Numbered from the stretch's first letter, positions 7,590 through 64,000 are shown. The stretch: 64,000 nt of DNA from a bacterium BMS3Bbin03 (GCA_002898015.1 BDTM01000035.1:42401-106400), one strand, 5' to 3'. A program made the numbers and translations. Notes: a model not told the origin generated them from the sequence alone.

Positions 7590-7667
7590 TTTTTATCAAT
7601 TGATTTTTCTTTTAATATTCGTTAAATTTCAAACAAAAGGGTTGGGAAAAATTTTGCGGAGGTGAAG

Positions 7668-7886
7668 ATGGAAGAAATTGTATTTCCGGAATGTCAAAAA
7701 TGCAGCACTGGTGTATTGGTGCCGTTGTCTGATTATGGAAGAGATGGAGCCACCATTATGTACAAAGCGTGGGTCTGTACAAATCCGGAGTGTGGTTTCC
7801 ACATTCGAATTGACAATGGAGAAGTCAGTTTTGGCCAGACAAAGGATCAATCGAATCGAAGGAAAAGAATAGTTTTAAAGAGATGA
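7668..7886 (+). CDS. Small zinc-ribbon protein (CxxC...CxxC)
   Basis: 72 aa with CQKCSTG and CTNPECG cysteine pairs. A GGAGGTGA Shine-Dalgarno site lies 5 nt upstream of the ATG. The ORF-track start at 7662 sits too close to this site. Confidence 0.45.
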   Translation: MEEIVFPECQKCSTGVLVPLSDYGRDGATIMYKAWVCTNPECGFHIRIDNGEVSFGQTKDQSNRRKRIVLKR

Positions 7887-9920: not shown

Positions 9921-9927
9921 GTCGGGA

Positions 9928-12117: not shown

Positions 12118-12127
12118 AGGGGGAATA

Positions 12128-14677
12128 ATGAAATTTCTTCTTCTTTTTTCGTTCATTTTTTTGGTTCTGTTTTCATTCGTGCAAACGGTCTTTCCTCAGG
12201 TGCGGCTTTCTGAAATTATGTTTGATCCGGTCGGCAGTGAATACACCGATGAGTTTATCGAAATTTACAATCGAAGCCTGTCGGATTCGATCAATCTTTC
12301 AGGCTGGAAAATCGGCGATGAAAAATCGCTGGATGCCGTCACGGAGGCAGGGTCCGGATTAGTGCTGGCCCCGGGGCAGTACGGGCTCATCCTGGATCCC
12401 GGGTATTTTACACACTCGACCGCGTACGATTCACGCATTCCGCCCGGCGCTCTAATTCTGACCATAACCGGCAATTCGTTTGGAAGCGGTGGATTGAGCA
12501 ATTCAAAACCGGAGACGGTTTATCTGGTCAACGCAGCAGGGGATACGGTCGATGCTTACCGGTACACACTAGACAATCCGCCGGGTTTTTCAGACGAAAA
12601 AATAAACATGAATCAGAATTCAAATACAAATAATTGGAAGAACGCCCTGATCCTAAACGGCACGCCAGGGTATCTGAATAGTGTGGCACGGCGGACACAA
12701 GATGTGGCTCTGATTGCCGCCGATTGGGATTCGCTTCAAGTCCGAAACGGCGGGGCATTTTCTCCCCTTTTCAGAATCAAAAATGCGGGGACAGTTTCTG
12801 CCTCGGGCATGAATTTGGCCGTTTACGAGGACAAAGATTTTAATGAAGAGTTTGAAACCTCCGAAATAATTTTTCAGAAGGCTGTTCCGGAAACCCTTTC
12901 TGCGGAAGATTCCCTTGCGCTAAAAATCAATCTCGGGAAATTAGCTCCCGGCCTTCACCGGTTTAAGGCGGTGTTGAACTGGGCGTCCGATGAAAATATC
13001 CGGAACAATTTTCTCCTGTTTAAAGTGCCGGTAAAATTTTTGCCGCATTCTCTCCTGTTTTCGGAAATCATGTACCGTCCCGCGGCAGGCTCTCCGGAAT
13101 GGGTGGAAATCAAAAATGTTTCCGGAGCCGCTGTCCGGCTTTATCGATGGTATTTTTCAGATGAAAACACAAACCGGGCCGGTGAGGTGTTCCGGGATCC
13201 CGTCCGGCTTCAGCCGAACGGCTACGTGGTTCTGGCACAATCCGAAATTCCGGATGCGCCGGATTCACTTCGGTCCCGCGAAATTATTGTTCCGAATTGG
13301 CCCACATTGAACAACTCGGGTGACGAAGTGTGGTTGTTCGATCCGGCCGGTGCGCCGATTGCGCAGACGGACTACTCGATTCAGCCTTTAACACCGGCCG
13401 GATTTTCGCTCGAACGCATGGAATTTGCAATCGATCAGGCGGATTCGGATGCCTGGGGCGTCAGCCGAATCGCGGGCGGCACACCTGGCAGTCCCAATTC
13501 CATCAACCCGTTGTTCGTGGACGGTGTTCTTGATTGTGCGCCTGAAAATGATCCGGTAAAAGTTTATTTTAAAGATTCGGTGATTGTAAATTTCCTTTTT
13601 AAAAATGAAGGCAGGCGGAAGATCGGGGAGAGCCGGGTTAAAATTTATGAGGATCGAAATCAAAACGGGGCATTTGAGCCAGAGGAACAAATTCAGGAGG
13701 AGTCGTTTTGTTCAGAAACCTTAAATCCGGGAGATTCCGTCAATTGCAGCGTTTATCTTGATGGATTATCTTCGGGCAAACATTCTCTGTCGGCATTTTG
13801 GGAGGTTCGGGAGGAGCAAAATCCGGCCGACAACCGGGTTTCTTTTTTCGTCTGGCGGGGTTTCCCGGAATCGGCCGTCGTGCTCAACGAAGTCATGTAC
13901 GATCCCCGTCCCGGCCGGCCGGAATGGGTGGAATTATTCAATCCCGGGGCAGAAGCCGTATCGCTGCAGGATTGGCTGATTTGTGATACACGAAAAGCCC
14001 TTGGGAAGGGGGCATTTAGGCCGCCGTCTTTCATTCTCCCTGAAGATTTCAAAGTCCTCACCCGGGATTCATCCTTTTTTACGGTTTACCCGGATGTCGA
14101 TAAAGACCATGTTCTGGTTGATAAAAATTTCCCCACATTGAACAATTCGGGCGATTCATTATTTTTAATAGATTTATCCGGTGCGACGATTGACAGCCTG
14201 GTTTACCGCTCTGCCTGGGGCGGACAAAACGGCCGTTCCCTGGAGAGAATTCGCTCCGGGAATTCGACTGCGGACAGCACCAACTGGAGTGCCTCGGTCG
14301 CCGAATCGGGGTGCACCCCCGCGGCACCGAACAGCATTTTGCTTCACACGGAGGCGTCGGGCAATTGGCTGACGATTGCGCCGGATCCATTTTCTCCGGA
14401 CGGGGATGGAAGAGATGATTTTGTGACGTTCACCATTCAGACAAAATTTCCAACAGCCGTGGCTGAATTGAAAATTTTTGATTCTGTGGGCAGGGAAATT
14501 CGGAGATTACTGGCCAATCAGCCTGTTGGGAGCCGGTACGAATGCATCTGGGACGGCCGTGATGTCAACGGAAAGATTCTGCCCATGGGGATTTACATTG
14601 CCTATTTGGAAATTTATGTGAATCAAAGGAAACAAAAGTCGACTAAAAAAGTATTTGTATTAGCAAAACGAATGTGA
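12128..14677 (+). CDS. Secreted protein with three lamin-tail-domain (LTD) repeats and a T9SS C-terminal sorting domain
   Basis: It has a signal peptide (MKFLLLFSFIFLVLFSFVQT). The LTD-like motif repeats three times (SEIMFDPVGSEYTDEFIEIYN, SEIMYRPAAGSPEWVEIKN, NEVMYDPRPGRPEWVELFN), each followed by a beta-sandwich. The C-terminus (PDPFSPDGDGRDDF...KIFDSVGREI...WDGRDVNGK...GIYIAYL...KKVFVLAKRM) fits the Por-secretion tail pattern. Confidence 0.6.
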   Translation: MKFLLLFSFIFLVLFSFVQTVFPQVRLSEIMFDPVGSEYTDEFIEIYNRSLSDSINLSGWKIGDEKSLDAVTEAGSGLVLAPGQYGLILDPGYFTHSTAYDSRIPPGALILTITGNSFGSGGLSNSKPETVYLVNAAGDTVDAYRYTLDNPPGFSDEKINMNQNSNTNNWKNALILNGTPGYLNSVARRTQDVALIAADWDSLQVRNGGAFSPLFRIKNAGTVSASGMNLAVYEDKDFNEEFETSEIIFQKAVPETLSAEDSLALKINLGKLAPGLHRFKAVLNWASDENIRNNFLLFKVPVKFLPHSLLFSEIMYRPAAGSPEWVEIKNVSGAAVRLYRWYFSDENTNRAGEVFRDPVRLQPNGYVVLAQSEIPDAPDSLRSREIIVPNWPTLNNSGDEVWLFDPAGAPIAQTDYSIQPLTPAGFSLERMEFAIDQADSDAWGVSRIAGGTPGSPNSINPLFVDGVLDCAPENDPVKVYFKDSVIVNFLFKNEGRRKIGESRVKIYEDRNQNGAFEPEEQIQEESFCSETLNPGDSVNCSVYLDGLSSGKHSLSAFWEVREEQNPADNRVSFFVWRGFPESAVVLNEVMYDPRPGRPEWVELFNPGAEAVSLQDWLICDTRKALGKGAFRPPSFILPEDFKVLTRDSSFFTVYPDVDKDHVLVDKNFPTLNNSGDSLFLIDLSGATIDSLVYRSAWGGQNGRSLERIRSGNSTADSTNWSASVAESGCTPAAPNSILLHTEASGNWLTIAPDPFSPDGDGRDDFVTFTIQTKFPTAVAELKIFDSVGREIRRLLANQPVGSRYECIWDGRDVNGKILPMGIYIAYLEIYVNQRKQKSTKKVFVLAKRM

Positions 14678-22229: not shown

Positions 22230-22910
22230 ATGAGAGAAGAGAAAATTTTAGTAGCTGTTGCGAATAACCTTCTCCGAACGAAAATAGCCAGAACACTCAG
22301 GGAAGTCGGATTCGGCGTGGCGGGCGCCAAGGATGGCAAAGATGTCATTGCGCGCGTGAACGAAGCCCTGCCGGTTATCTTATTCATGGATGTGGACTTA
22401 CCGGAAATTTCGGGATGGACCATCTGCAAGGAATTAAAGGATAATCGACTGACACGCCGAATTGGTATTATCTTAAGCGCGTATGAATCCGATGAGAATG
22501 ATCGCGTGAAAGGATTGGAATTAGGGGCCGATGATTTCATCGATTATCCGTTTGGAATGCGGGAAATGCTCGCCCGGGTAAAGGCTTTGTATCGCCGCAT
22601 TCGTTTGGATCGAAATCAAATCAAAGTGCGGGACATTGAAATCGATCTGGACGAGCATCGCGTTAAAAAGGCCGGCCTGCCCATTGATTTAACCTACATT
22701 CAATTTAAATTACTCTACTTGCTGGCATCACGGAGAGAAAATGTCTTCTCACGCCAGGAAATATTGGAGCGGGTCTGGGGGCATAAAATCTATGTCACCA
22801 ATCGAACCGTGGACGTTCACATAAAACGGCTGCGTGAAAAATTAGGCGAAGCAAAGTACCCGTCCAAATATATCGAGACGATTCATGGTGTCGGCTATCG
22901 TTTCATGTAA
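22230..22910 (+). CDS. Atypical OmpR/PhoB-family response regulator (receiver-like domain lacking the acidic pocket and conserved Lys, plus winged-helix DNA-binding domain)
   Basis: 226 aa. The C-terminal winged helix (RTVDVHIKRLREKLG...GVGYRF) is canonical. In the receiver domain, ILVAVANN replaces the usual ILVVDDD, and DYPF replaces (T/S)KPF. The phospho-Asp position is retained (FMDVDLP). Confidence 0.7.
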   Translation: MREEKILVAVANNLLRTKIARTLREVGFGVAGAKDGKDVIARVNEALPVILFMDVDLPEISGWTICKELKDNRLTRRIGIILSAYESDENDRVKGLELGADDFIDYPFGMREMLARVKALYRRIRLDRNQIKVRDIEIDLDEHRVKKAGLPIDLTYIQFKLLYLLASRRENVFSRQEILERVWGHKIYVTNRTVDVHIKRLREKLGEAKYPSKYIETIHGVGYRFM

Positions 22911-27979: not shown

Positions 27980-28007
27980 TTGACATTGGAAAAAAAAATC
28001 TTATATT
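27980..28007 (+). promoter_or_regulatory. Sigma70-like promoter, TTGACA-N16-TATATT
   Basis: TTGACATTGGAAAAAAAAATCTTATATT has a consensus -35 and a near-consensus -10. It lies about 240 nt upstream of the outer-membrane-receptor gene. Confidence 0.4.
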
Positions 28008-28179
28008 ATTAGTGAAATTAAGAAATTGTCATAAAATTACCTGCTCGATAGTATAAAGAAATCTTTAAGGTGACAGATCTTTCCGAAGTTTAAGCGTTCA
28101 ATTCTTGAGGGAATTTTTAAAGCAAATTCAATTGCCGGGGAACGGGGTTTTTTAGTTCATTGCTTTTCAGGAGGAGGTG

Positions 28180-28227
28180 ATGAATCTTTCCTTTTTTTAT
28201 TCTGCTGTATTCTATTTCATGATTTAA
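28180..28227 (+). CDS. 15-codon leader ORF (MNLSFFYSAVFYFMI) with a strong Shine-Dalgarno site
   Basis: AGGAGGAGGTGATG is followed by 15 codons (4 Phe, 2 Tyr) and a TAA stop. It ends 20 nt before the GGAAGGAGGT site of the downstream outer-membrane-protein gene. Confidence 0.3.
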   Translation: MNLSFFYSAVFYFMI

Positions 28228-28246
28228 AAGGAAGGAGGTCGTATCG

Positions 28247-31039
28247 ATGGGACTGCGTCGTATTTGTCCAATCGCTGGGGTTTTCCTGCTTTCTTTTCTG
28301 ATGTTGTATCCCCTGTTTTTATGGGCGGGAACCACCGGAAAAATTGCAGGATACGTCCGTGACAAAAGCAACAACCAGCCCTTACCGGGAGCCAATGTAA
28401 TCATTGTTGGCACGCAAATGGGGGCGGCCACGGATGCAAATGGTTATTTTTATATCATTAACATTCCGCCTGGTGTTTACAAAGTACAGGTCCGGATGAT
28501 TGGGTATGAAACGGTTTTGATGAAAAATGTTCGGGTGCAGGTTGATCGAACCACAAAAACCAATTTCTCTCTTCCGTCCACCGTTTTAAAATTGGGAAAA
28601 GAAATCGTGGTAACGGCGGAACGTCCTTTAATCGAACCGGATATCACAACCAAAACCAACACCATTTCTGCAGAAGAATTAAAGACGATGCCCGTGAGAG
28701 GCATCGCAGATATTATGACATTACAATCGGGTATCATGGAGGTCATGGGATCTTTCAACAAAGTTCCCGGATTTGATTCCCGCGGAATTGATGATGTGCA
28801 TGTGCGCGGCGGGCGGAACGGTGAAATTGCCTACATGATCGACGGGATGTATGTGGAGGATGCGATTTACGCCGGGATGGGCACGCTGCTCAATCGGGAA
28901 GCTATCCAGGAATTGACCATTATTACCGGGAATTTTAACGCGGAGTATGGTCAGGCCCAATCTTCGATCGTGAATATTGTGACAAAAGAAGGCGGCGCAC
29001 GGTATACCGGATTAATGGAAGCCAGTACCGGTGAAATTGCAGGAAAGCTTGGTTCCAAGCCGGATGACCTGCGTGATGCGCACCAATTAATCGGTTCGTT
29101 CGGCGGTCCCGTGCCGCTGATCAAGCGCATGAATTTCTTTCTTTCCGGAAGTCAATCGTTTAAACGCTACGCGGTTTATCAATTCGACAACATCGTTTAC
29201 GATCCGAAGAATCCGGATAAAAGCACCTGGTCTTACGGTGCCTATCGAAAGGCATTTGAATGGGATACCATCCCGGGGTGGCGCGCATTTGGATTTAACC
29301 ACACCTGGGATTTTTCCGGAAAACTCACTTACCGGTTTAATCCCAGCATGAAATTAATATTAACGAATCGTTTAACAGAACGTCTGTTTCGGAATTTCGA
29401 TTGGGCCTGGCAGTATGCGGAGGCGGGCCGGCACGTGGTGAAGGATAGAACGGATCAACAGGGCCTGATCTGGACGCACCAGCTCAGTTCGTCCACATTT
29501 TATAATATTCGCGCCAGCCGTTTCTGGAAAGGGCGGACCTTTCGGGTGCACGGCATCAATAATCACGAATTGACGCCCGGGCATGCGGACAAGCTGATTG
29601 AACTGGGTGCCACAAGAGACTCAAGAGGATTTGGACCTCAGGAATACCCCACACGGGCCACAGTAGGGGGCTTTTATACGCCCATGAAATTTGTGCGTTT
29701 TGACACCCTAACGGACGGAGAGATTCGTCAGGTTTACACCGGAAGTGCCACACAATACTGGACACGCACCTATCAACAAACCTATGAATATTCATTATCA
29801 CTCACCAGCCAGATTCAGCGTCATCACCAGATTAAAACGGGTGTCGAGTACAAGACCTATGATCTGTATTTTCTTGAATTTCAATATCCGTGGATTCCAA
29901 ATCCCTACTCCGAATATTATATGAACCATCCGGAGGAAGGAAGCTGGTACCTCCAGGATAAAATGGAATACGAAAACCTGATTATAAATGCCGGCATACG
30001 CTTTGATTATGCCAATTCAAAAGGGTCTATGTGGGAAGACCCGACAAACCCGGGCAGTCCGGTGGTGACCGGGAAAAAGAAATATCAGTGGTCGCCCCGG
30101 CTCGGAATCGGGCATCCCATTACGGACAAAGCCACATTCCATTTTGCTTACGGGCAATTTTTTCAGGTGCCTGAATATCGGAACCTGTACACCAATAACG
30201 ACCGCGATCTCTCCACGCCCCGGCCTTTGTTTGGAAATCCCAATCTGAAGGCACAGCGAACCATTGCGTACGAAGTTGGCATTCGTCAGCAAATCGGACA
30301 AAATTGGGCGGTTGACATCACGGCCTGGTCAAAAGAAAGCAGTGAGTTGACGGGGACCATTAACGTAACCGGTTTTGACCCGCACGGCATCGGTTTGTAC
30401 GATTATTATGTGATGGTAAACCATGATTACGGAAGTTCTCGCGGATTGGATATCAGCATCCAAAAGCGTTACAGCAATTATTTTCGCGGGCAGCTTAACT
30501 ACACCTATTCGGTGGCAAAAGGCAATCAGCGGTATTCGTGGTCAGGATACTGGAACAGTGTCACGGATGAAACCGAACCCAAGAAGGAATACCTGATGCC
30601 CTGGGATCAGCCGCACACACTGGATGCCAACGTTTCGATCATCTTCCCGCGGTATTTCGGCCCGAAAGTCTGGAAATTTAAACCGTTATCCGAGTTTTAT
30701 ATGAATTTTATTGTGCGGCTCCACAGCGGGTATCCGTATACTCCGAGTTCCGGCGGTCAATCGTTAGAGCCGAACTCGGGAAGGCGCCCCTGGTTCTTCT
30801 CGATCGATACGATGATTCGCAAAGATATCCGGATTTTGGGGAATACAAAAATAGCCTTGTTTTCCAGAATTTACAACTTAACGGATCGAAAAAACCCCAT
30901 TTACGTGTATTCAGAGACGGGAAGTCCAACGGATCCGGGGCCTTACGCCAGTAAAACAGCTACTTCGACCTATTACGACAGACCGCATTATTTTGGCCCA
31001 AGGCGGACTATCGACTTTGGTTTGCAGTTTTTATTTTAA
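28247..31039 (+). CDS. TonB-dependent-receptor-like outer-membrane beta-barrel with an N-terminal carboxypeptidase-regulatory-like domain
   Basis: 930 aa with a signal peptide. The CarbopepD_reg-like fold is GKIAGYVRDKSNNQPLPGANVIIVG...DANGYFYIINIPPGVYKV. A plug-like region and a long Tyr/Gly-rich amphipathic barrel follow. The protein ends in a terminal Phe (GLQFLF). Confidence 0.65.
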   Translation: MGLRRICPIAGVFLLSFLMLYPLFLWAGTTGKIAGYVRDKSNNQPLPGANVIIVGTQMGAATDANGYFYIINIPPGVYKVQVRMIGYETVLMKNVRVQVDRTTKTNFSLPSTVLKLGKEIVVTAERPLIEPDITTKTNTISAEELKTMPVRGIADIMTLQSGIMEVMGSFNKVPGFDSRGIDDVHVRGGRNGEIAYMIDGMYVEDAIYAGMGTLLNREAIQELTIITGNFNAEYGQAQSSIVNIVTKEGGARYTGLMEASTGEIAGKLGSKPDDLRDAHQLIGSFGGPVPLIKRMNFFLSGSQSFKRYAVYQFDNIVYDPKNPDKSTWSYGAYRKAFEWDTIPGWRAFGFNHTWDFSGKLTYRFNPSMKLILTNRLTERLFRNFDWAWQYAEAGRHVVKDRTDQQGLIWTHQLSSSTFYNIRASRFWKGRTFRVHGINNHELTPGHADKLIELGATRDSRGFGPQEYPTRATVGGFYTPMKFVRFDTLTDGEIRQVYTGSATQYWTRTYQQTYEYSLSLTSQIQRHHQIKTGVEYKTYDLYFLEFQYPWIPNPYSEYYMNHPEEGSWYLQDKMEYENLIINAGIRFDYANSKGSMWEDPTNPGSPVVTGKKKYQWSPRLGIGHPITDKATFHFAYGQFFQVPEYRNLYTNNDRDLSTPRPLFGNPNLKAQRTIAYEVGIRQQIGQNWAVDITAWSKESSELTGTINVTGFDPHGIGLYDYYVMVNHDYGSSRGLDISIQKRYSNYFRGQLNYTYSVAKGNQRYSWSGYWNSVTDETEPKKEYLMPWDQPHTLDANVSIIFPRYFGPKVWKFKPLSEFYMNFIVRLHSGYPYTPSSGGQSLEPNSGRRPWFFSIDTMIRKDIRILGNTKIALFSRIYNLTDRKNPIYVYSETGSPTDPGPYASKTATSTYYDRPHYFGPRRTIDFGLQFLF

Positions 31040-31106
31040 GCTGAATCATTTGTGGTGTCAATTAAGGATTTTAATTGTAGCTGTTGTGAATGATGGAGGT
31101 CTTGTA

Positions 31107-34100
31107 ATGAATATCAAACAAAAAACGCTTTTTATATTGATACTTGGGCTTGCAATCGGCTTTTGGGGGCTGCAGTTTTCAAGCCTTGCGGCAGATAAAA
31201 AATCGGCCAAAAACAGCTATCTTAAGAAACCCCAAAGAAATATCGATTTTGCAGCGGGAATTTTGGATGCCGGTAAATTACAAAATGCTGTTTTTAATGA
31301 CGGGCGATTGGCCACATGGGCGTACCGGCCCTCCGTACCGGCCGCTTTTTACAAGGGTTGGTCCTATATTCCCGATTTAAGTATGATCATTGGTATCCCG
31401 GAGGATTCCAGTTGGACCCCTAAAAAACTGGATCCGGTCACAAATAAAATGATCAGTATGGGACCCACTGTTTCAGAGAGATTTGTGGCCAGTGACTGGG
31501 GCCCCAGTGCGGGAGCGAATGGAAAGTTACATTCCGGAGATGCCACCGTCGGCGATGTTCTGACCGGAACCAGCATAGGCGCTGTTCCGCTGATGGCCAC
31601 GAGCACGATTAAAAAAAGCTGGCCCAAAGATGACAGCGGCAACCGGTTCTGGCCGGGACCCTGGGCAGTAGACCCAATAACGGGAAAGGTTTTAAAAGGG
31701 CATTTTACCTCGGACAAAGACATCTTTTTCAGCATCACCGATTATGATGTCAATGACCAGGATGTTCCCTATGCGGATTCGGATAACGACACCCTGCAGG
31801 GGTACCCCATCGGGCTGAAATTGGATATCTCCGGCTATTCATACGGCCGGTCCTACGCAGAAGACATCTTATTCTTTCCGATGAAAATCATTAACACAAG
31901 CAAAAATAATTATCATGGGATGTATGTTGGCTTTTATATGGATGCCGACATCCCGGAGTACAACTTAAAAACGACCGTTAACGACCGTATGGACTGGATG
32001 AGTTTCATTAAGGATGAATATGATCCTGAAACGGATTCCACCTATCATTACAATATGGCGTACATTTACGACTACCGCTGGGGCACCGGGGATTTTAGCG
32101 GTGTATCCGATCCGGATGCCTGGAAAGTGTATGCCAGCATGAAATTGCTGGACACACCCGTTAACCCCAAAACCGGAGAACAACTGGGAATCACGGATTG
32201 GCACTGGTTCCAATGGGAGAACCGCCCGGGGATCATTGATTCCAAACGGCAGGAACTGATTCAATATAAAGTCATCAGCGGCGATACATCCGGATTGACC
32301 CCGGAAGAAAGCGATGCCTATTTCTGGCCCGATCCTTCCGGTCATCTGGATCCGCATTTTGATTCGCCCGAAGGCATTCGAACGATGTATCCGGATGGAT
32401 TGGACTGCGTGTTTATCATGAGTTCGGGGCCTTTTGACCTGGCCGCCGGGGATACGGCCGTGTTTTCATTTGCCATGATTATGGGAGATAATTTAAAAGA
32501 TCTTAAATTTAATGCCCGTACCGCCCAGTTTATGTATAATTTGCACTATCAGGGTGCCAATCCGCCGATAGCCCCACACGTCACGGCAGTTCCCGGAAAA
32601 GGGCGAATAACCCTTTATTGGGATCGCGTGGCGGAATCTTCTATCGATATTATGACGGGATACCAGGATTTTGAAGGGTATCGAATTTACCGCACGACGA
32701 GTAATCCCGTCAACAATGAATGGGGTACCGAAATTCGAAATGATCTGGGAAACGTGGTTGAGTTTGTGCCGGTCGCCCAATTTGACTTAGCTGACGGGAT
32801 CAAAGGTCCCGATCCTCAGAACCCTTATTTCAATCTGGGGAATGACACAGGCTTGAAACACTCCTGGACAGATTCCACCGTTTTGGACGGCGTGACCTAC
32901 TGGTATGCCGTCGCCCCTTATGATCGCGGTGTTCGTCCCGAAACCGAATTCAATCCGGATCATTGGCCCCTGCTGGCAGCCCTTGAAACCGCAAAAGGCA
33001 CAAACCCGGATGCGACACCGAATTTGGTGGAGGTTGTGCCCGGTCCAAAGCCTTCCACATATGTGCCGCCGGAGATTGTCCTGAAACCGAAGCCCGGAAC
33101 TCTCGGAAATGGAAAAATCAAAGCTTCGATCATCGATCCGGTGGCCATTACCGGACATACTTATGAAATCAGTTTTGATGATACAACCACGCGTGGAAAA
33201 CTTCTTTACAACGTCTGGGATGCGACCGATCAGGCATGGGCTCTAAAAGGAGCCGATGAAACCCGGGGGCAGGAAGGGCCGTTCTTTGACGGTTTGCAGC
33301 TTTTGATTGATAATTATCAATCAATCGGACTATTGGCGGATTCCTCGGGGTGGACCACCGCGACAGGCGATTCAACGGATGTGACATGGACTTATTCGGC
33401 GACCGGTTTTAGTAATCCGCACAATTATGAAATTCGATTCACGGATGAAGGAGATACGAGTGTGTTCATGCCTCCGCTGATAAGAGTGCCCTTCGAGGTC
33501 TGGGATGTGACCGTCGATCAAAAATTGGATTTTATCAGTTTTGCGGCGAGTACGGACACAACGCCGGAGATGAAAAATACCTGGACAAGCGGCGATGCGT
33601 TTATGATTCGTGAAAAAGTGAGGGGCCGGGTGCGAAGTACCTTCAGCTTTAAATTGGAAGGGATTCCGGATACCGTCATCACAACAATCGATACGACGAT
33701 TAATGGGGCGGACACGACAATTGTGGACACGACCATTACACCCAAAATACCCCCGAAAACGGGTGACGTGCTGCACCTGATCACGACAAAACCGTTTAAA
33801 CGCGACCGTGATGTTTTTGTGCTTGAAACTTCCCATTACAAACTCGAAAAAAGGATTCAGCAAAAAGAATTAAAAATGGTTCGGGTGGTGCCCAATCCTT
33901 ACATTGTTTCGGCAGAATGGGATTTAAATCCGTACATCCGGCATATTCAGTTTCGGAATTTGCCGAACGAGTGTGTGATTCGTATTTTCACATTAACAGG
34001 AGACAAGGTTAAAACGATTCATCACAAGAACGCGACGCAGGGATGGGAATTCTGGAATATGCAGACGTATAACGGGCAGGAAATCGCGTATGGCTTGTAT

Positions 34101-34163
34101 TTATACATAATTGAAACGCCGGACGGCAAGACGCAAATGGGTAAATTTGCGGTTATTAAATAG
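31107..34163 (+). CDS. Large secreted protein with a variant T9SS-type C-terminal beta-sandwich, candidate PorU-like from synteny
   Basis: About 1018 aa. The signal peptide is MNIKQKTLFILILGLAIGFWGLQFSSLAA. The C-terminus (VVPNPY...NLPNECVIRIFTLTGDKV...GLYLYIIETPDGKTQMGKFAVIK) resembles a Por CTD. It sits immediately upstream of the PorV-like gene. GGAGGT lies 6 nt before the ATG. Confidence 0.5.
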   Translation: MNIKQKTLFILILGLAIGFWGLQFSSLAADKKSAKNSYLKKPQRNIDFAAGILDAGKLQNAVFNDGRLATWAYRPSVPAAFYKGWSYIPDLSMIIGIPEDSSWTPKKLDPVTNKMISMGPTVSERFVASDWGPSAGANGKLHSGDATVGDVLTGTSIGAVPLMATSTIKKSWPKDDSGNRFWPGPWAVDPITGKVLKGHFTSDKDIFFSITDYDVNDQDVPYADSDNDTLQGYPIGLKLDISGYSYGRSYAEDILFFPMKIINTSKNNYHGMYVGFYMDADIPEYNLKTTVNDRMDWMSFIKDEYDPETDSTYHYNMAYIYDYRWGTGDFSGVSDPDAWKVYASMKLLDTPVNPKTGEQLGITDWHWFQWENRPGIIDSKRQELIQYKVISGDTSGLTPEESDAYFWPDPSGHLDPHFDSPEGIRTMYPDGLDCVFIMSSGPFDLAAGDTAVFSFAMIMGDNLKDLKFNARTAQFMYNLHYQGANPPIAPHVTAVPGKGRITLYWDRVAESSIDIMTGYQDFEGYRIYRTTSNPVNNEWGTEIRNDLGNVVEFVPVAQFDLADGIKGPDPQNPYFNLGNDTGLKHSWTDSTVLDGVTYWYAVAPYDRGVRPETEFNPDHWPLLAALETAKGTNPDATPNLVEVVPGPKPSTYVPPEIVLKPKPGTLGNGKIKASIIDPVAITGHTYEISFDDTTTRGKLLYNVWDATDQAWALKGADETRGQEGPFFDGLQLLIDNYQSIGLLADSSGWTTATGDSTDVTWTYSATGFSNPHNYEIRFTDEGDTSVFMPPLIRVPFEVWDVTVDQKLDFISFAASTDTTPEMKNTWTSGDAFMIREKVRGRVRSTFSFKLEGIPDTVITTIDTTINGADTTIVDTTITPKIPPKTGDVLHLITTKPFKRDRDVFVLETSHYKLEKRIQQKELKMVRVVPNPYIVSAEWDLNPYIRHIQFRNLPNECVIRIFTLTGDKVKTIHHKNATQGWEFWNMQTYNGQEIAYGLYLYIIETPDGKTQMGKFAVIK

Positions 34164-34200
34164 ACACAAAACTGCCATTAAATTTTTCGGAGGAAAATCA

Positions 34201-35223
34201 ATGAAACGCGTGATTTTAACGATGACTCTGATTTTGGGCCTGTTCTGGAATCTGGCGCAGGCACAGGAAATGAGCCGCGTGGCCACTGCCAGCGCCCAGT
34301 TTTTAAAATTCGGTGTGGGTGCACGTGCCCTGGCTCTTGGCAGCGCTTATGTGGCTTTTGAAAATGATCCGTTTTCACTCTATTGGAATCCCGCCGGTAT
34401 CGCCTCCATACAGGGTACGGCTGTGGCTGTTTCCAGGAGTAATTATTATGGCGGCATATCGCACAACTTTTTTGGAACCGTTCTGGGTCTGGCGGAAGGC
34501 GCTTTAGGCCTGAGTGTGACTTACATGGGTACAAATGAAATTGAAGTGACTACGCTTTCTTCGCCCGACGGAACCGGAACCTATTACGATGTCAGCGGTA
34601 TGAGCGTCGGATTGACGTATGCCCGAAATATTACCAACGTTTTAAAAATGGGAATCACGGCGAAACTGGTTCGGGAGCGTATTTACCGGGAAACGGCTAA
34701 CGCACTTGCAGTTGATTTCGGCTCCATCATCAACACCGGATTGGGAGGCGTCAAACTGGCCATGTCACTGACGAATCTTGGGCAATCCATGCAATTGCGG
34801 GGTCCCGATTTGCGCGTCTCGCACGACCGGTATCCCAATAATCCTGCAGAGGCGAACGTAAAAGCGGATTTATTTACGGACAAATGGCCGCTGCCGATGG
34901 TGTACACCATTGGCATCAGGACAGATATCGTGGGGGGTGATGGAATGAATATTCCCAGCCAGGTGCATCGATTGACCGTTGCATTTTCCGCCAATGATGC
35001 CTGGGATGCGGTTTTAAGAGCCAATTACGGACTGGAATATGAATGGCGAAACTTGTTCTCCATCCGAGCGGGTTTCATGCAAAAGTACGATACAGCCCGT
35101 TTTACACTTGGCGGCGGCGTGAGGTATCAATTGGGACGTACAACGATGCTGCTTGACTATGCGTATGTAAATTACAGTTATTTGGGCAGTACCAATCATT
35201 TTTCTCTGGAATTTCACTATTAA
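34201..35223 (+). CDS. porV: PorV/LptO-like outer-membrane protein (T9SS shuttle, FadL-like barrel)
   Basis: It has a signal peptide and the N-terminal motif SAQFLKFGVGARALALGSAYVAFENDPFSLYWNPAGIA, which matches the conserved PorV N-terminal box (FL.I..GARA..MG.A....D..S..WNPAG). The barrel is Gly/Tyr-rich and ends in an aromatic residue. Confidence 0.6.
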   Translation: MKRVILTMTLILGLFWNLAQAQEMSRVATASAQFLKFGVGARALALGSAYVAFENDPFSLYWNPAGIASIQGTAVAVSRSNYYGGISHNFFGTVLGLAEGALGLSVTYMGTNEIEVTTLSSPDGTGTYYDVSGMSVGLTYARNITNVLKMGITAKLVRERIYRETANALAVDFGSIINTGLGGVKLAMSLTNLGQSMQLRGPDLRVSHDRYPNNPAEANVKADLFTDKWPLPMVYTIGIRTDIVGGDGMNIPSQVHRLTVAFSANDAWDAVLRANYGLEYEWRNLFSIRAGFMQKYDTARFTLGGGVRYQLGRTTMLLDYAYVNYSYLGSTNHFSLEFHY

Positions 35224-35264
35224 ATTGCTTATATTACTTTGTGTTAATTTCTTATAGTCCCCTG

Positions 35265-35407
35265 AAAGGAGGTGAGGTAGCCCAACCCATTTGAATGAAT
35301 CCTATCTTATGAAATCGCGAAAGGAGGTGATATAGCAGTTGTATCGGATGCTGAATTCGATGAAAAAGTTGCGATTTAATCAAAAGCATGAAGGAGGATT
35401 AAAATGA
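35265..35407 (+). promoter_or_regulatory. 5' leader with repeated AAAGGAGGTGA (perfect anti-Shine-Dalgarno complement) motifs and overlapping mini-uORFs
   Basis: AAAGGAGGTGA occurs at 35265-35275 and 35330-35340, and GAAGGAGGA at 35390. A 19-codon uORF (35348..35407, MLNSMKKLRFNQKHEGGLK) ends in ATGA, overlapping the main ATG at 35404. Confidence 0.5.
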
Positions 35408-37542
35408 AGAAAAATTTTTGGGTTGCATTTTTAAGTTTGATATTGGTTTTAGCGCTGTCGTTGACGGTAATGGCGAATAACAAAAGATATGCGGTCATTC
35501 GTCCGGGTGTCCCGGGTCAGCAGAGCGATGTCATTTTTATGACCCCGAGTGAGTTGAATTCACCCAATGTGGTGCAAATTATTCAAAAGCGGTTTGCAAA
35601 ACTGAGTGCCTCCGAGGGCATTATTGATACGTTAAAACATACATTTAGCGGCGTCAACTTCGGTTTTGCAGATGGCGATACAATGGCTGCTTTCTTTCGT
35701 CCGCCTGCCGGCTGTATTGTGAAATCCGTTATCATGACCTTTCAGAAATGGGGCGGTCAATTAACATCAGCCATTAATCTCTCAATTTATGGGTCCAATT
35801 ACCATGCCACTGAAATTCCGGATAGTCTTTTATATGGTAATTTCAGTCCCATCAATCTGGGATGGTGGACTGCAAGTGGAAATTGGGCACCACAGGTGCC
35901 TTATAGCTTCTATCCTTTAGGTGACCTTCTCTGGGGCGATTTTCCCATCAGTCTGGATCCGTCGAAAGATTCCCAAACCATTGATACACCGATGATTTAT
36001 CTGGGTTTCGAACCGGATGTGAAGCGGAATGACTTCATGATTGTGGCGCGCCCGGTGCAGGGAAGCGGCCAGTCGACCACCGGTATTTCGGCAGGCGCTG
36101 CCAACGGTGATCCCATGTTTGTGGGCTTCAAATGCTATCATGCCGGTCGTCTCGGTGAAACAACCACACCCTCCTGGTGGATTCGCGAATATGCCTGGAC
36201 AGTATGGGTCGTGGTTGAATTTTATGAAAATACCCCACCGAGTATTGATATTACAAAGATGTCCAATACGTTTTCCGCCGGACCATTTACGGCAAAAGCC
36301 ATGATAAAAGATCTTGATGCACATGATGCGACTCAGGCCGGCGTGGCGGAAGCCTATTTGCATTACAGCACGAATGGTGCGGCATGGGATTCTGTGGCCA
36401 TGAGCGGTCCGGCATCCGGAGGTGAATTCTCTGCCGTGATTCCGGCGGTGACAGCCCCGACATTTGTGTATTATTATATAACGGCAAAAGACCCACCCGG
36501 ACTTTATACCACAACAGCGGCGGCGCCCAAGAAATTCTATGTCGGCATTAAAACCGGTTCAAACATTCTGCTGTTCAACCAGGGCGGCGGATACGCTTCC
36601 GTATTTGATTCTGTTTATATAAACGATCTGGATGCGCTTGGGTATAAATATGACTATATGTTTGGCAGTGTCGACGAGACCGTAAAAGCGGAAAACTACA
36701 AATACGTCATCGTTCCCGCAAACGGCAATCCTATGCCGTCTTTATCCGATAGTCTGGGTTTAAACAAATTTGTAACGCTGTTGGATAATGGCGGAAATCT
36801 ATTGGTCAGCTCTGACGAAGCATTCGGATACTATACCTATGGTTGGCCGGGAGATACCCTGGCAACACCGGGCGGTTTCTTCCATGATTATCTTCATGTG
36901 AAAGAAGAATTCAGCGATGCCCCCTACGACAAGATCATGGATGTGCCGGGCGACGGTTTTGCAGACGCCTTAACCGATACGATTAAATTAACATTTCCGT
37001 CTGGTGTAGAAAACTATAGTGATGCCGTTTTGCCTACGGCAGATGGCTCCATGTTGTTTACGGTTACGCCGGATACATTTGCCAGCAAAACCGGCGGAAC
37101 TGTTAATGGTGCAGGTATTCTGTACAACGGAAATTATAAGGTTGTCTACTTGCCGTTTATTCTTGCAACATTAAACCAAAATGATCGCCAGACCATTATG
37201 AAGAGTGCGTTGGATTTCTTCGGTGCTACGAGCGATGTGTCGGAAGAAAATACGAATTCTCCGTACACGTACACATTACATCAGAATTACCCGAACCCAT
37301 TCAATCCGACGACGAATATCTCCTACAGCGTGGCGAAAGCGGGACAGGTGAATGTGGCTGTTTTCAATGTGATCGGCGAAAAAATTGCCGAGCTTGTAAA
37401 CGGTTATAAAACTGCCGGTTCTTATGGCGTGACGTGGAACGGAAAAGATAATGCCGGGCAGAATGTGGCCAGTGGTGTGTATTTCTACAGGATCAAAGCC
37501 GGTAATTTTACAATGACTAAAAAAATGGTTTTAATGCGGTAA
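35404..37542 (+). CDS. Secreted protein of unknown function with a T9SS C-terminal sorting domain
   Basis: 712 aa with a signal peptide. The C-terminus is NYPNPFNPTTNISYSV...VAVFNVIGEKIAELVNGYKTAGSYGVTWNGKDNAGQNVASGVYFYRIKAGNFTMTKKMVLMR, a canonical Por_Secre_tail. Confidence 0.7.
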   Translation: MKKNFWVAFLSLILVLALSLTVMANNKRYAVIRPGVPGQQSDVIFMTPSELNSPNVVQIIQKRFAKLSASEGIIDTLKHTFSGVNFGFADGDTMAAFFRPPAGCIVKSVIMTFQKWGGQLTSAINLSIYGSNYHATEIPDSLLYGNFSPINLGWWTASGNWAPQVPYSFYPLGDLLWGDFPISLDPSKDSQTIDTPMIYLGFEPDVKRNDFMIVARPVQGSGQSTTGISAGAANGDPMFVGFKCYHAGRLGETTTPSWWIREYAWTVWVVVEFYENTPPSIDITKMSNTFSAGPFTAKAMIKDLDAHDATQAGVAEAYLHYSTNGAAWDSVAMSGPASGGEFSAVIPAVTAPTFVYYYITAKDPPGLYTTTAAAPKKFYVGIKTGSNILLFNQGGGYASVFDSVYINDLDALGYKYDYMFGSVDETVKAENYKYVIVPANGNPMPSLSDSLGLNKFVTLLDNGGNLLVSSDEAFGYYTYGWPGDTLATPGGFFHDYLHVKEEFSDAPYDKIMDVPGDGFADALTDTIKLTFPSGVENYSDAVLPTADGSMLFTVTPDTFASKTGGTVNGAGILYNGNYKVVYLPFILATLNQNDRQTIMKSALDFFGATSDVSEENTNSPYTYTLHQNYPNPFNPTTNISYSVAKAGQVNVAVFNVIGEKIAELVNGYKTAGSYGVTWNGKDNAGQNVASGVYFYRIKAGNFTMTKKMVLMR

Positions 37543-37584
37543 TTTAGACTTCATAAGAAGAAAATTGCATGTGTTTAACGAATG

Positions 37585-37623
37585 GCAGAGGATGGGAAAC
37601 CGTCCTCTGCTGCTTATTTTTTG
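37585..37623 (+). terminator. Rho-independent terminator
   Basis: The GCAGAGGA / TCCTCTGC stem is 8 bp with a 10-nt loop, followed by TGCTTATTTTTTG. Confidence 0.6.
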
Positions 37624-41639: not shown

Positions 41640-41656
41640 TACCGAAAAAGGAGGTG

Positions 41657-41779
41657 ATGAGATTTTTATCCGAAAAATATTATTTACAAAAAGGAGGTGA
41701 GGCGAACAAAAAAATCCTTGTTGCGGATGAAAAAACCAGTCATGGATTAAAATTTATCGACTGGCAAATCGTAAAATAA
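41657..41779 (+). CDS. 40-codon small ORF in the cargo-gene leader (MRFLSEKYYLQKGGEANKKILVADEKTSHGLKFIDWQIVK); speculative
   Basis: It starts 2 nt after AAAGGAGGTG and contains a second AAAGGAGGTGA internally. It ends 27 nt before the next cargo gene. Confidence 0.2.
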   Translation: MRFLSEKYYLQKGGEANKKILVADEKTSHGLKFIDWQIVK

Positions 41780-41806
41780 TTTCAAACCAAAATGGAGGGT
41801 AACAAC

Positions 41807-44800
41807 ATGAGTAAAAGGTTGTTTTTATTTGCCACTGCGGTCATGTTGGCTGTATTTGGTGTGTTTGCGGTTTATGCTTCGAATAGTCCCCAAAAGTCGG
41901 TTGTGACAAGCAAGGTTAAAACCGTTCAGAAAAAGAAATTTCAAATGATTCGTTCTAACGGAACTGAAGCGGCCACGGCTGCCACACCATTATTCTTCGA
42001 TGATTTTGAAGGCACTAATCCCACATGGTGGCCCGATGCAAGCTGGAACAACACGGGTGATCCCGATCCCAATACCGGGCGCCAGTTTTCGAGAAAATCG
42101 ACGTGGGAATACACCGACTCATCGTATAGCAGCCCCACGCATAGCTGGCATAATTTGGTCAATGCCAATCAGGATCTGGACTTCTTGTTCTCACCTGTGT
42201 TTCACGTACCGGATTCGGTGACGATTGACGGGATTACCAGTGTACTAAAGGGCGGCTTTATCCAGTTTATGGCCAAAAAAGGCGGCAAAGGCATACTGAA
42301 TGTTTTTGTGAGCGCAGCCACTCCCCTTTGGGAAGTTGTATCCGATGATCCTCACAGCGGAGCCAATAATTATAATATGACTCAACCCAGTAACCCGATG
42401 CTGCATCAGTGGTTAATTTCTCCGAAAATTGATTTAACCGGAAAAACGGCGCCCAAACTGGATTTCTGGCACAATTATATTTCCGAAGACAAGTGGGATT
42501 ATCTGGCTGTAGATGTGTCTACCGACAGTTTTGCCACTTATACGAATCTGGCGTATTATACGGGCGAACAGGATGCCTATACAGAAGTAAATCTGGATTT
42601 GTCGGCTTTCGCCGGCGAGCAAATCTGGTTCCGTTTCCGCTACGTAGCCGATTATGGAGCAACAGCAGATAACGCGCATTGGGATGTGGATGACATTCTG
42701 GTTGCCGATGGCACCGATACGGTATTCTTTTCCGGTGCAGAAACTGAACCTGACCCCTTTACAAAGGCCGGGTTCATGGGCGGTACATCTGTTGCGGCAT
42801 TTAATACCGAACAGGATTGGGGCCTTGTCGATTTGGGTAATGTCCTTCTGAAAGGCGTTAAACCGGGTGTGGATGCGCGTTTGGCGTTTCAATGGACTAC
42901 TTCAGGAGACACCACGTTAACCGGCGCAGGCATCTATGTGGATGATGTCTCCGTTATTCCAATGGGAATGCAGCATGTCGATTTAGAAGCTGTTGGCGCC
43001 GCCGGCTTAAACAACGCTGCCCTTGGCAGACCGCTTAATGCAAAAGTTGTGGTTGCCAATGCGGGTCTCGATACGTTAAGCGGCCGTATTTCATGGCTGG
43101 CAAAAGTCTTTAAAAATGTAACTCCCGACAGCAGTGCTCTTGTCGGCAATATGGTTGGTTTTCAGCAAGTCAGTGGTTTCACTCCCGATTCAGTTATCTA
43201 TATTCCAACGCTGCAAAACACACGTTGGGTTCCAAAAGAACCGGGTGATTACACATTGGATGTGGATGTCATTTTCAATGGTGACACTTACATGTCCAAT
43301 AATAATGTGAAGGTAGATTTCACCGTACTCGGGCCTCCTTTTGCCATTCCGGTCTATCGTGAAGATTTCGAGCCCAGAGCCGGCCAGACGTCCTTAGCAG
43401 ATTTCGGGTGGACGGTTGACAATGGCGGCGGCGGTTCACACACTTGGGTTTATGATACCTGGATATATGGCTGGGGTCCGGTCATATCAGGATATTTTTA
43501 CGATTGGACGGCTGATTCTGCCAGTGCGGCACAGGCATTAGATGAAACGCTGACCAGTCCTGAAATTGACATTTCTAAGGTCAATTCGCATAATGTCCTG
43601 TTTTTGAACTGTTATATCTATTTCCGGCCCGGCCACGCCGGTCTGGGAGCCCCCTGGGGTGCGCAACCCAGCGATATGACGATTCAATATTCCGTAGACG
43701 GCGGCGCCTGGCAGCAAGCATTCTACTGGGCTGATAACGATACACTGCCCGGAGATTACAATCGTTGGCCGCAGACCCGGTTGGGTGTGCCGTATTATCA
43801 CAAAACCGACATGGTGCTTCCCGGAGCAGCCGGTGGAAAAACACTCCAGATCCGCGTCAACTTCACTTCTACGAACTCGTATCTCTTTGGCATCAACTTC
43901 GATGAGGTCATCATTTACCAGGGTCTGATTAATCCATTGTTAGGCAAGGTGAAAGATGTGCCCAACGATAATGGTAAACAAGTCCGCTTGAATTGGATGA
44001 GATCCTGGAACGATCTGATGACCGCTAAGGGTGAAGGTTTGCAGAATCCGGTGACGCATTACAATGTCTGGAGAGGCTTTGGAATCCCGGGCGCGGGAGA
44101 AGCCAGACATGTGACTTCAACGGAAGCCATGCTGCGTGGTGCTGCCGGCATGAAAATTGGTGACAAAGTCATCGTCGATGACAACAACATGCTGTGGGAA
44201 CTGGTGGGCTCTGTTCCGGCAATGGGATGGAAATTCTATTCCTACGTCGCTCCGACCCTTGAGGATTCTGTCAGCACCTCATTCATGGTTTCTGCTCATC
44301 TGACCAATCCGATGGTATTCGATTACTCAAATATCAGTGCAGGCATATCCATCGATAATCTGGCGCCGCACATACCGGGTGGACTGACGGGTGGTCAGGT
44401 AGATTCCCATGTAAAAATCGTCTGGCAGCCGGTAACCGATAATGACCTGATGTTCTATACGGTTTATCGCAGCCAGGGAAATGGTAATTTGGTGCGATTG
44501 ACAAGAACAACGAGCACCTCTTATGTAGATGCGAATGTCACTCTGGAGAAGACTTATCATTATGCCATTACCGCCACCGATTTTGGGTGGAATGAGAGTC
44601 AAAAATCGGAAAAACTGTCGGTTTCCGTGACCAGTGTGAATGAAAAAGTTTCTAATGCAATCCCGACGGATTACGCATTGAATCAAAATTATCCGAATCC
44701 ATTCAATCCGACCACGGAAATTCGCTACGCGATTCCAAAGAGTGCAAATGTGACCATTTCAATTTATAACGTATTTGGTCAGAAAGTACGCACGCTGGTA

Positions 44801-44944
44801 ACCGGATACAAGTCTGCCGGCTATTATGTGGCAAACTGGAATGGCCGTTCCGATAATGGTCGCGAAGTCTCTTCCGGTATTTATTTCTATGAAATTCATG
44901 CCGGTACATTTACGGCCACAAAGAAGATGACTTTAATGCGGTAA
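41807..44944 (+). CDS. Secreted protein with an FN3 domain and a T9SS C-terminal sorting domain
   Basis: There is a GGAGGG site 6 nt before ATG 41807, and a signal peptide. The FN3-like module is VKIVWQPVTDNDLMFYTVYRSQGNGNLVRLTRTTSTSYVD. The C-terminal CTD is NYPNPFNPTTEIRYAI...GIYFYEIHAGTFTATKKMTLMR. Confidence 0.65.
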   Translation: MSKRLFLFATAVMLAVFGVFAVYASNSPQKSVVTSKVKTVQKKKFQMIRSNGTEAATAATPLFFDDFEGTNPTWWPDASWNNTGDPDPNTGRQFSRKSTWEYTDSSYSSPTHSWHNLVNANQDLDFLFSPVFHVPDSVTIDGITSVLKGGFIQFMAKKGGKGILNVFVSAATPLWEVVSDDPHSGANNYNMTQPSNPMLHQWLISPKIDLTGKTAPKLDFWHNYISEDKWDYLAVDVSTDSFATYTNLAYYTGEQDAYTEVNLDLSAFAGEQIWFRFRYVADYGATADNAHWDVDDILVADGTDTVFFSGAETEPDPFTKAGFMGGTSVAAFNTEQDWGLVDLGNVLLKGVKPGVDARLAFQWTTSGDTTLTGAGIYVDDVSVIPMGMQHVDLEAVGAAGLNNAALGRPLNAKVVVANAGLDTLSGRISWLAKVFKNVTPDSSALVGNMVGFQQVSGFTPDSVIYIPTLQNTRWVPKEPGDYTLDVDVIFNGDTYMSNNNVKVDFTVLGPPFAIPVYREDFEPRAGQTSLADFGWTVDNGGGGSHTWVYDTWIYGWGPVISGYFYDWTADSASAAQALDETLTSPEIDISKVNSHNVLFLNCYIYFRPGHAGLGAPWGAQPSDMTIQYSVDGGAWQQAFYWADNDTLPGDYNRWPQTRLGVPYYHKTDMVLPGAAGGKTLQIRVNFTSTNSYLFGINFDEVIIYQGLINPLLGKVKDVPNDNGKQVRLNWMRSWNDLMTAKGEGLQNPVTHYNVWRGFGIPGAGEARHVTSTEAMLRGAAGMKIGDKVIVDDNNMLWELVGSVPAMGWKFYSYVAPTLEDSVSTSFMVSAHLTNPMVFDYSNISAGISIDNLAPHIPGGLTGGQVDSHVKIVWQPVTDNDLMFYTVYRSQGNGNLVRLTRTTSTSYVDANVTLEKTYHYAITATDFGWNESQKSEKLSVSVTSVNEKVSNAIPTDYALNQNYPNPFNPTTEIRYAIPKSANVTISIYNVFGQKVRTLVTGYKSAGYYVANWNGRSDNGREVSSGIYFYEIHAGTFTATKKMTLMR

Positions 44945-44962
44945 TTTGTTCCTGTTCAAAAA

Positions 44963-63936: not shown

Positions 63937-64000
63937 TTTTGATCACCTCTTTACAAGTTTTAAATTGTTATATTCTAATTTTACATCAACTTAATATCGG

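Follow-up and report, generated by a model that had tools for sequence, protein, structure and literature searches.

In three leaders of the 64-kb stretch of DNA that we analyzed (the window), which comes from an uncultured Calditrichota bacterium, short boxes that are exact complements of the 3' tail of 16S rRNA lie well upstream of the gene's ordinary Shine-Dalgarno sequence (SD). We are confident that these boxes are conserved and selected as partners of the 16S tail, and that the genes downstream do not use them as their SDs. Going by their sequence, they are most likely sites of ribosome docking that protects the downstream cistron, boosts it, or both. More specifically, by analogy with the STAB-SD of Bacillus, non-initiating SD boxes of maximal strength (12-13 nt), in leader or intercistronic RNA, would stabilize the message. 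We put the probability of this reading at about one half.

The leader of cargo gene 1

Direct reading gives cargo gene 1 a leader of 180 nt, bounded by the stop codon of a PorV-like gene (35223) and by its own ATG (35404). Among named homologs of the cargo-1 protein, the closest are annotated as "Calditrichaeota bacterium," and ENA and Logan assemblies also have this contig. The original prediction described a repeated motif in this leader, and we found the exact 11-mer AAAGGAGGTGA at 35265 and 35320, along with a genuine SD, GAAGGAGGA (Table 1). Two more copies, at 41647 and 41690, make four in the window, all on the + strand, while 0.02 ± 0.14 copies are expected by chance (100 dinucleotide shuffles). 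Also present, as described, are a 19-codon uORF at 35348-35407, which runs from an ATG to a TGA (35405-35407) and shares ATGA with the cargo-1 start, and two shorter mini-ORFs (35295-35312 and 35309-35335). The uORF can be extended upstream to TTG 35339.

The motif was also said to recur before the next cargo gene. It does recur, but one gene further on: the next cargo gene, which encodes a subtilase (start 37824/37833), has an ordinary AAGGAGG and no box, and the second pair of boxes precedes the gene after it, cargo gene 3 (start 41807).

Table 1. Features of the window, in order of position. Energies are predicted for duplexes with the 16S tail.
Feature	Coordinates	Strand	Remarks
Best sigma-70-like promoter match	27980..28009	+	TTGACA-16/18-TATATT/TATTAT
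Receptor-leader decoy box GGAGGAGGTGAT	28170..28181	+	TonB-dependent receptor gene; -19.6 kcal/mol
Distal decoy box GAAAGGAGGTGA	35264..35275	+	No start codon within 15 nt downstream; -21.5 kcal/mol
Proximal decoy box GAAAGGAGGTGAT	35319..35331	+	76 nt 5' of cargo-1 ATG; only one start nearby, a TTG at spacing 11
uORF	35339..35407	+	From TTG 35339 or ATG 35348; TGA overlaps cargo-1 ATG
Small predicted hairpin	35342..35362	+	11 nt 3' of proximal box; tentative, folding energies not significant
Genuine SD of cargo gene 1, GAAGGAGGA	35390..35398	+	5 nt before ATG 35404; -12.4 kcal/mol
Cargo gene 1	35404..37542	+	712 aa; Por_Secre_tail (T9SS C-terminal sorting domain, CTD), FlgD_ig
Intrinsic-terminator-like hairpin and T-run	37583..37622	+	After cargo gene 1
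First cargo-3 decoy box AAAGGAGGTGAT	41647..41658	+	8 nt past subtilase stop; -19.6 kcal/mol; kept in L004
Second cargo-3 decoy box AAAGGAGGTGA	41690..41700	+	No nearby start codon; -18.1 kcal/mol; kept in L004
Cargo gene 3	41807..44944	+	InhA-like MAM domain and T9SS CTD; start from gene caller

Pairing with the 16S tail

The 16S tail GAUCACCUCCUUUC is near-universal. We scanned both strands of the window, which has no 16S gene, for exact complements of this tail. Complements of at least 10 nt occur five times, all in the leaders of cargo gene 1, cargo gene 3, and a receptor gene, and none of them adjoins the main start. These five boxes are 65-133 nt from the first in-frame start of the downstream ORF, or 69-152 nt from the starts used in the compilation of 25 instances described below. 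In the genuine start-proximal SDs of the window, the complement is only 7-9 nt long.

The boxes also rank 1-5 by duplex energy (from ViennaRNA) among all sites on either strand of the window. They range from -18.1 kcal/mol to -23.1 kcal/mol, with the proximal box GAAAGGAGGTGAT the strongest. The median across 43 genuine start regions is -7.4 kcal/mol. The organism clearly uses canonical SDs, as 20 of the 43 are at or below -8. The boxes are predicted to bind the anti-SD more strongly than almost every genuine SD of the window does. Complementarity to the 16S tail is a defining property of a STAB-SD, and here it takes the form of exact complements of 12-13 nt.

That the motif is complementary to the 16S tail was part of the original prediction, and it rests on the near-universal tail. 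Two other observations agree with it. Genuine SDs at 63941 (minus strand) and 7658 extend into GGTGATC, which supports the tail that we assumed, and a 16S 3' end found in another locus (L066) reads exactly as the assumed complement.

Opening a box is predicted to cost 2-11 kcal/mol, which is well under the duplex energies. We detected no selection for accessibility when boxes were compared to shuffled flanks (opening energy of 5.35 vs. 4.88 kcal/mol, not significant).

Conservation in orthologous leaders

We retrieved orthologous loci at a range of protein identities: L007 (96%), L130 (80%), L004 (73%), L005 (69%), L006 (48%), and the deep orthologs L128, L129, and L131 (about 33-35%) and L133 (30%). 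A metagenome scan with the cargo-1 alignment contributed four useful leaders. The original prediction had staked itself on conservation of the leader motifs, and boxes indeed persist in all the orthologous leaders examined, whose protein identities range from 96% to 30%. Each complete cargo-1 leader has at least one upstream box besides the real SD (usually two, but three in L128 and one in L133), and the leader of L131, which ends at a contig edge, has one box in its visible part. The deep orthologs (about 30-34% identity) retain boxes despite differing G+C content and spacers that cannot be aligned. Across the orthologous loci, complements of at least 9 nt are almost confined to these leaders.

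If the five closer leaders are aligned, the two boxes and the true SD appear as three long invariant runs, with only scattered single columns conserved elsewhere. The distal box GAAAGGAGGTGA is invariant in 5/5 of these leaders, and the genuine SD has the invariant core AAGGAGGAT. For a broader view, we compiled 25 boxes, taken from cargo-3 leaders, receptor leaders, and the leaders of 10 cargo-1 orthologs. Only positions -4 to +7 relative to GGAGG, which correspond to GAAAGGAGGTGA, carry information. Because the information content falls to about zero on both sides, the conserved 12-nt unit coincides with the stretch that pairs with 16S rRNA.

In 9 of the 10 cargo-1 orthologs, 68-81 nt separate the proximal box from the main start; in L133, the separation is 95 nt. 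It is rather constant even though the spacer cannot be aligned between subclades. We ruled out a repeat or mobile element as the origin of the boxes, as the shared part is the 12-nt box only and the flanks are unrelated.

Other leaders and genes of the window

The cargo-3 pair sits in a 167-nt spacer between the subtilase gene and the InhA-like/MAM cargo gene, which has its own SD (GGAGGG at 41795-41800). The two boxes are 152 and 109 nt from the start in the window and 153 and 111 nt from it in L004. An ATG adjoins the first box at spacing 2 and opens a uORF of 40 codons (41657-41779). L004 and L130 retain the cargo-3 pair as well as the receptor box.

The receptor box GGAGGAGGTGAT is part of a conserved block of the receptor leader, GGAGGAGGTGATGAAYYTTTCC (28150-28250 in the window, 1570-1680 in L130, and 2415-2500 in L004). 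Here too an ATG at spacing 2 opens a uORF, of 15 codons (28180-28227). In L128 and L129, the receptor box is about 30 nt 3' of a consensus promoter (TTGACA-17-TATATT) and about 170 nt 5' of the ATG. As for the folding of the receptor leader, an upstream U-rich strand is predicted to pair with the box and the ATG, and a CUUUCC element inside the uORF with the genuine SD (28226-28239); the folding z-scores are not significant. A switch in which translation of the uORF unmasks the SD would fit these predicted folds. In L129, a perfect hairpin (GCTCACCTCC-gcttgct-GGAGGTGAGC, 3808-3836) lies directly past the receptor stop codon, and one of its arms is SD-like and the other anti-SD-like; an unrelated hairpin is at the same place in L128.

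The receptor gene and cargo gene 1 are the ends of a four-gene cassette (28247-37542) that is also found in L004, L128, and L129 and is kept down to 33% identity in Calditrichota-like MAGs. It encodes a CarboxypepD_reg TonB-dependent receptor, a protein of about 1020 amino acids with no match in Pfam (1018 amino acids in the window), a PorV-like protein of about 340 amino acids, and a T9SS CTD protein of about 715 amino acids. The cassette may be a dedicated receptor/shuttle/cargo module. The window has a fourth T9SS-type cargo gene, at 12062-14677 (+ strand), with three lamin-tail domains (LTD) and a CHU_C signal. Because the upstream ORF (9907-12117) runs into its longest frame, this gene shows no intergenic leader, and it has no box. 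The boxes sit ahead of a few genes for envelope or secreted proteins that are very probably highly expressed.

Transcription units and RNA structure

The best promoter match in the window (Table 1) is likely, from its sequence, to be the start of a transcription unit that runs from the receptor gene to cargo gene 1. Convincing terminators follow cargo gene 1 (at 37583) and cargo gene 3 (at 44958), and none is found ahead of either cargo leader, so these leaders seem to lie between cistrons. Two units are probable: one of receptor, 1018-aa protein, PorV-like protein, and cargo 1, and one of subtilase and cargo 3. Our promoter scan listed no promoter-like site between the PorV-like stop and the cargo-1 start (35223-35404). 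One candidate just 5' of the distal box, TATAGT at 35253-35258, was rejected: it is altered in L007 (96% identity) and absent from other orthologs. Because no convincing promoter adjoins the boxes in the window, they would act inside polycistronic RNA or after processing.

The window has no match to Rfam at the gathering thresholds, and the leaders have none at E ≤ 5. Nor do the leaders fold better than shuffled sequences (z-scores of -0.5 and -1.9), and conserved RNA structure was not found in them. Small hairpins with differing stems are predicted 11-14 nt 3' of the proximal box in the window, in L130 (about 8927-8955), in L004 (about 9936-9956), and in L005 (about 4565-4581), which amount to few independent sequences.

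T9SS cargo and exported proteins in other phyla

Boxes precede 2 of the 4 CTD genes in the window and 1 of the 39 other genes (p ~ 0.02, hypergeometric, calculated by hand). The subtilase gene, the LTD cargo gene (12062-14677), a C25 peptidase gene of L004, and nine CTD genes in L137 and L139 have no box. The association with T9SS cargo that the original prediction proposed is therefore weak, and with so many boxless CTD genes and a boxed gene for a TonB-dependent receptor, we ruled out that the boxes accompany T9SS cargo in general. The element goes with individual genes rather than with a secretion class.

To look further afield, we scanned one genome per species for a twin motif, AAGGAGGTGA-N28-58-RRGGAGGTGA, which gave at least 120 stretches in at least 80 loci (a sample that is biased by design). 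The matches listed include coding repeats, tandem repeats, a 16S end, and about two dozen leaders. Among the matches listed, twin-box leaders are found in Chloroflexota, Desulfobacterota, Spirochaetota, Bipolaricaulota, WOR-3, "Cytophagia" MAGs, and others, and they have two or three boxes, then an ordinary SD, and then a gene for a protein with a signal peptide.

We classified 24 leader targets automatically and called signal peptides with a simple hydropathy rule. Among the matches listed, 13 of the 24 targets are signal-peptide-like, vs. 61 of 402 neighboring genes (odds ratio 6.6, p = 2.5e-5). We compared 20 of the targets to Pfam: among the matches listed, nine are solute-binding proteins of transporters and two are TonB-type receptors with CarboxypepD_reg, while a T9SS CTD, a multihaem cytochrome, FG-GAP, and DUF4397 account for one each and five have no match. 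The association of twin boxes with genes for exported proteins across phyla is a lead from sequence, not a census.

Among the matches listed, L010, L011, L012, L020, L022, L028, L033, L034, L040, L043, L052, L061, L067, L074, L085, and others have two or three GAAAGGAGGTGA(T) boxes per leader in the sense orientation; the targets in these listed matches are mostly ABC or TRAP solute-binding proteins. In several such loci among the matches listed, the last box is the genuine SD, with the extra copies 40-60 nt 5' of it. Noncoding tandem repeats with AAGGAGGTGA in L009 (2739-3000), L069, L080, and L082 (from Myroides, Chitinophaga, Bhargavaea, and a Burkholderiales MAG) appear unrelated to leaders.

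How the boxes might act

A function at the level of the ribosome is by far the most economical explanation of the boxes, and we infer ribosome binding with some effect on stability or yield. In the STAB-SD-like reading that we prefer, a 30S subunit or a post-termination ribosome would pair with the box through its anti-SD. The docked ribosome would be unable to initiate productively there, because either there is no start codon or the ATG is only 2-3 nt away. Once parked, it would shield the 5' side of the downstream cistron from decay that depends on the 5' end or that proceeds 5' to 3'. Parking would also keep ribosomes close to the ordinary SD, which is 70-150 nt downstream. Some observations weigh against this reading: no convincing promoter adjoins the boxes in the window, eight of the 25 boxes compiled have an ATG close by with an open frame behind it, and shuffled flanks leave the boxes just as accessible.

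Docking could instead raise initiation and not stability. The boxes would then be standby sites or translational enhancers that pick up 30S subunits and pass them on to the genuine SD, or that retain post-termination ribosomes. We think this is rather unlikely. The evidence for pairing with 16S rRNA applies to it equally. Also, the first cargo-3 box starts 8-10 nt past the upstream stop in the window and L004, which is ideal for catching terminating ribosomes; the rather constant distance of the proximal box from the main start would suit it; and neither a terminator nor a strong promoter separates the upstream genes from the cargo leaders. However, there is no obvious need for a standby site where the genuine SDs are strong by themselves and, in cargo leader 1, no predicted structure buries them. 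A direct hand-over would have to bridge 70-190 nt, which is a long way, and the receptor box of L128 and L129 is 170 nt from the start and beside a promoter.

uORFs near the boxes

Another possibility is that the boxes are the SDs of regulatory uORFs, so that cargo expression is set by termination and reinitiation at the ATGA overlap. We consider this unlikely. About half of the boxes are not SDs for uORFs, because 12 of the 25 boxes that we compiled, distal boxes among them, have no ATG, GTG, or TTG within 15 nt. A start codon at a spacing of 4-12 nt is found for 5 of the 25, as compared to 42% of random positions in the same leaders (p ~ 0.02, with instances that are not independent). For another 8 of the 25, an ATG lies at a spacing of 2-3 nt: seven of these read GGAGGTGATG, and the one in L133 reads GGAGGTGAATG (spacing 3). 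A spacing of 2-3 nt is far under the known optimum for an SD. As an internal control for productive spacing, we used a 72-codon ORF (7668-7886, + strand) with two CxxC pairs (zinc-ribbon-like), which is below the cut-offs for our ORF lists (150 aa and 90 aa); its genuine GGAGGTGA SD at 7658 has a spacing of 5 to ATG 7668. On the other hand, the frames opened by the ATGs that adjoin boxes are 7-40 codons long, with at least 14 codons in 7 of the 8 cases, and some boxes may drive real, if inefficient, translation of uORFs.

In the cargo-1 leaders, the uORF of the window is real, and an open frame leads from the proximal box to the region of the main start in the window, L007, L004, and L005. The start codon for this frame varies. 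In the window it would be the TTG or an ATG at spacing 20; L005 has an ATG directly after the box (spacing 2); and L004 has no canonical start near the box, although its frame is open to ATGA. The ATGA overlap itself is found only in the window and L005. Even in L007, a 1-nt deletion shifts the frame of the uORF, which ends with TAA just before the main ATG (stop at -1), and in L004 and L130, the ATG-started uORFs stop 5' of the SD (at -12). In L128, L129, and L131, the main ORF begins with ATGCGA, so the overlap is impossible. Open frames of 20-50 codons also occur in the other frames of the same leaders.

A uORF that acts by termination and reinitiation should have a conserved stop on or next to the main start, and the stop is not conserved among the orthologs; neither is the frame or the peptide. 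The regulatory role that the original prediction gave to the start-overlapping uORF is thus not borne out. We also ruled out a conserved small protein encoded in the leader, as the uORF peptides are not conserved. The receptor leader is more favorable to a regulatory uORF: the first four codons of its uORF (MN[LF]S) are conserved, as is the CUUUCC element, the predicted pairing partner of the genuine SD.

A high-G+C subclade has a conserved uORF, ATGGTARGCTGTGGACGACAAC, preceded by AGGGGG (L128 9956-10010, L129 8293-8345, L131 70-120). Starting 45 nt 5' of the main ATG, it crosses both the main SD and that ATG in a different reading frame.

A partner other than the ribosome

The classical layout of a CsrA target is a set of several GGA motifs with one on top of the genuine SD. 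The leaders have this layout, and a regulator could use the direct repeats, with their separation of 43-62 bp, as operators (22230-22910 encodes an OmpR-type response regulator), but a CsrA-like GGA-binding protein, an sRNA with CCUCC, or a DNA-binding regulator that recognizes direct repeats is very improbable as the partner, given that conservation spans the full 12-nt complement of 16S rRNA and stops at its end instead of being limited to GGA or a loop, that the leaders lack the conserved hairpins that would present the GGA of the box in a loop to CsrA/RsmA, that all instances are in the sense orientation, and that the same 12-mer in unrelated phyla fits the universal 16S rRNA better than a lineage-specific protein.

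Implications

If the boxes are ribosome-docking stabilizers, then the STAB-SD principle would reach beyond its Firmicute origin. So far, STAB-SD is known from one Bacillus toxin gene and is suspected in a few genes of Gram-positive bacteria. It would be an old and general way to boost particular cistrons within the operons of uncultured diderm bacteria. As the boxes are recognizable from sequence, they could point out which surface and secreted proteins of a metagenome-assembled genome are most highly expressed, and they could supply portable parts for expression. There is also a caution for gene callers and predictors of uORFs: a region's strongest SD may not be a start signal at all.

We find the tie to genes for exported proteins across phyla the most interesting lead. 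It is possible, though we lean against it, that non-initiating arrays of full-length anti-SD complements are a widespread and uncatalogued class of leader element that marks the messages of exported proteins made in abundance, in many phyla (Calditrichota, Chloroflexota, Desulfobacterota, Spirochaetota, and Bipolaricaulota among them). The marked mRNAs would be those of solute-binding proteins, TonB-dependent receptors, T9SS cargo, pilins, and cytochromes. Under this same tentative proposal, the boxes would be parking sites for ribosomes, with a preferred geometry of an ATG adjoining the box and a proximal box about 70-80 nt from the start, and the arrays would set the lifetime and output of the mRNA independently of the Firmicute RNase J1 context that defines STAB-SD.

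Comparison with known systems

Like termination-reinitiation in operons, the uORF of the window ends with ATGA over the main start, but this geometry is not conserved among the orthologs, and coupling is not required for cargo gene 1 because the gene carries its own strong SD.

Ribosome standby sites (the model of de Smit and van Duin; tisB) are usually unstructured stretches that serve a structured ribosome binding site (RBS), while the boxes are arrays of perfect anti-SD complements. Upstream RBSs can affect the main ORF, and pairs that cause occlusion are closely spaced to the main RBS (bioRxiv 10.64898/2026.05.12.723736). What these systems would have in common with ours is that ribosome binding upstream influences the main ORF, and that uORFs overlapping the main start can couple to it or occlude it. 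Unlike the occlusion pairs, the boxes are 70-150 nt from the main RBS.

In B. subtilis, a strong SD blocks RNase J1 in hbs and other genes, which is a stabilization of the 5' end that depends on ribosomes (PMC5737220). The very strong pairing of the boxes with the anti-SD could likewise be a roadblock to 5'-to-3' decay. The protecting SD of hbs initiates translation, whereas the candidates here are separate copies that probably do not.

The STAB-SD of Bacillus thuringiensis cry3Aa was reportedly described by Agaisse & Lereclus (1996) and Mathy et al. (2007). The cry3Aa element, located in the 5' UTR, resembles an SD and pairs with 16S rRNA without initiating; the bound 30S subunit blocks RNase J1 and so stabilizes the mRNA, and similar sequences are present in other Gram-positive genes (PMC4113751). 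Many cry genes have up to three upstream SDs, whose function is unknown (PMC12970973). We examined cry3Aa in plasmid pBMB51 (L140 703-717), where GAAAGGAGG is at -125 to -117 and an ATG follows at once (GGAGGGATG, spacing 1). This ATG opens an ORF of 7 codons.

The likeness to STAB-SD is in several features. Each box is a perfect SD-like sequence that begins with GAAAGGAGG, lies in an untranslated leader about 70-150 nt 5' of the real SD, and is not used by the main start, and it sits before a gene for a protein that is exported or accumulated and is massively produced (here, very probably so). Where an ATG adjoins the box, its spacing is probably non-productive in both systems (GGAGGGATG in cry3Aa and GGAGGTGATG here), and the receptor box of L128 and L129, near its promoter, has the geometry of a STAB-SD. 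There are also differences. The boxes here are 12-13 nt long, come in arrays of two or three, and belong to a diderm phylum of the FCB group, Calditrichota, and where STAB-SD has a mapped 5' end, the boxes of the window are probably inside polycistronic RNA. That the boxes work as STAB-SD does is an unproven assignment, drawn from features of the sequence. For an element of this type, both the phylum and the arrangement of the calditrichotan boxes are new.
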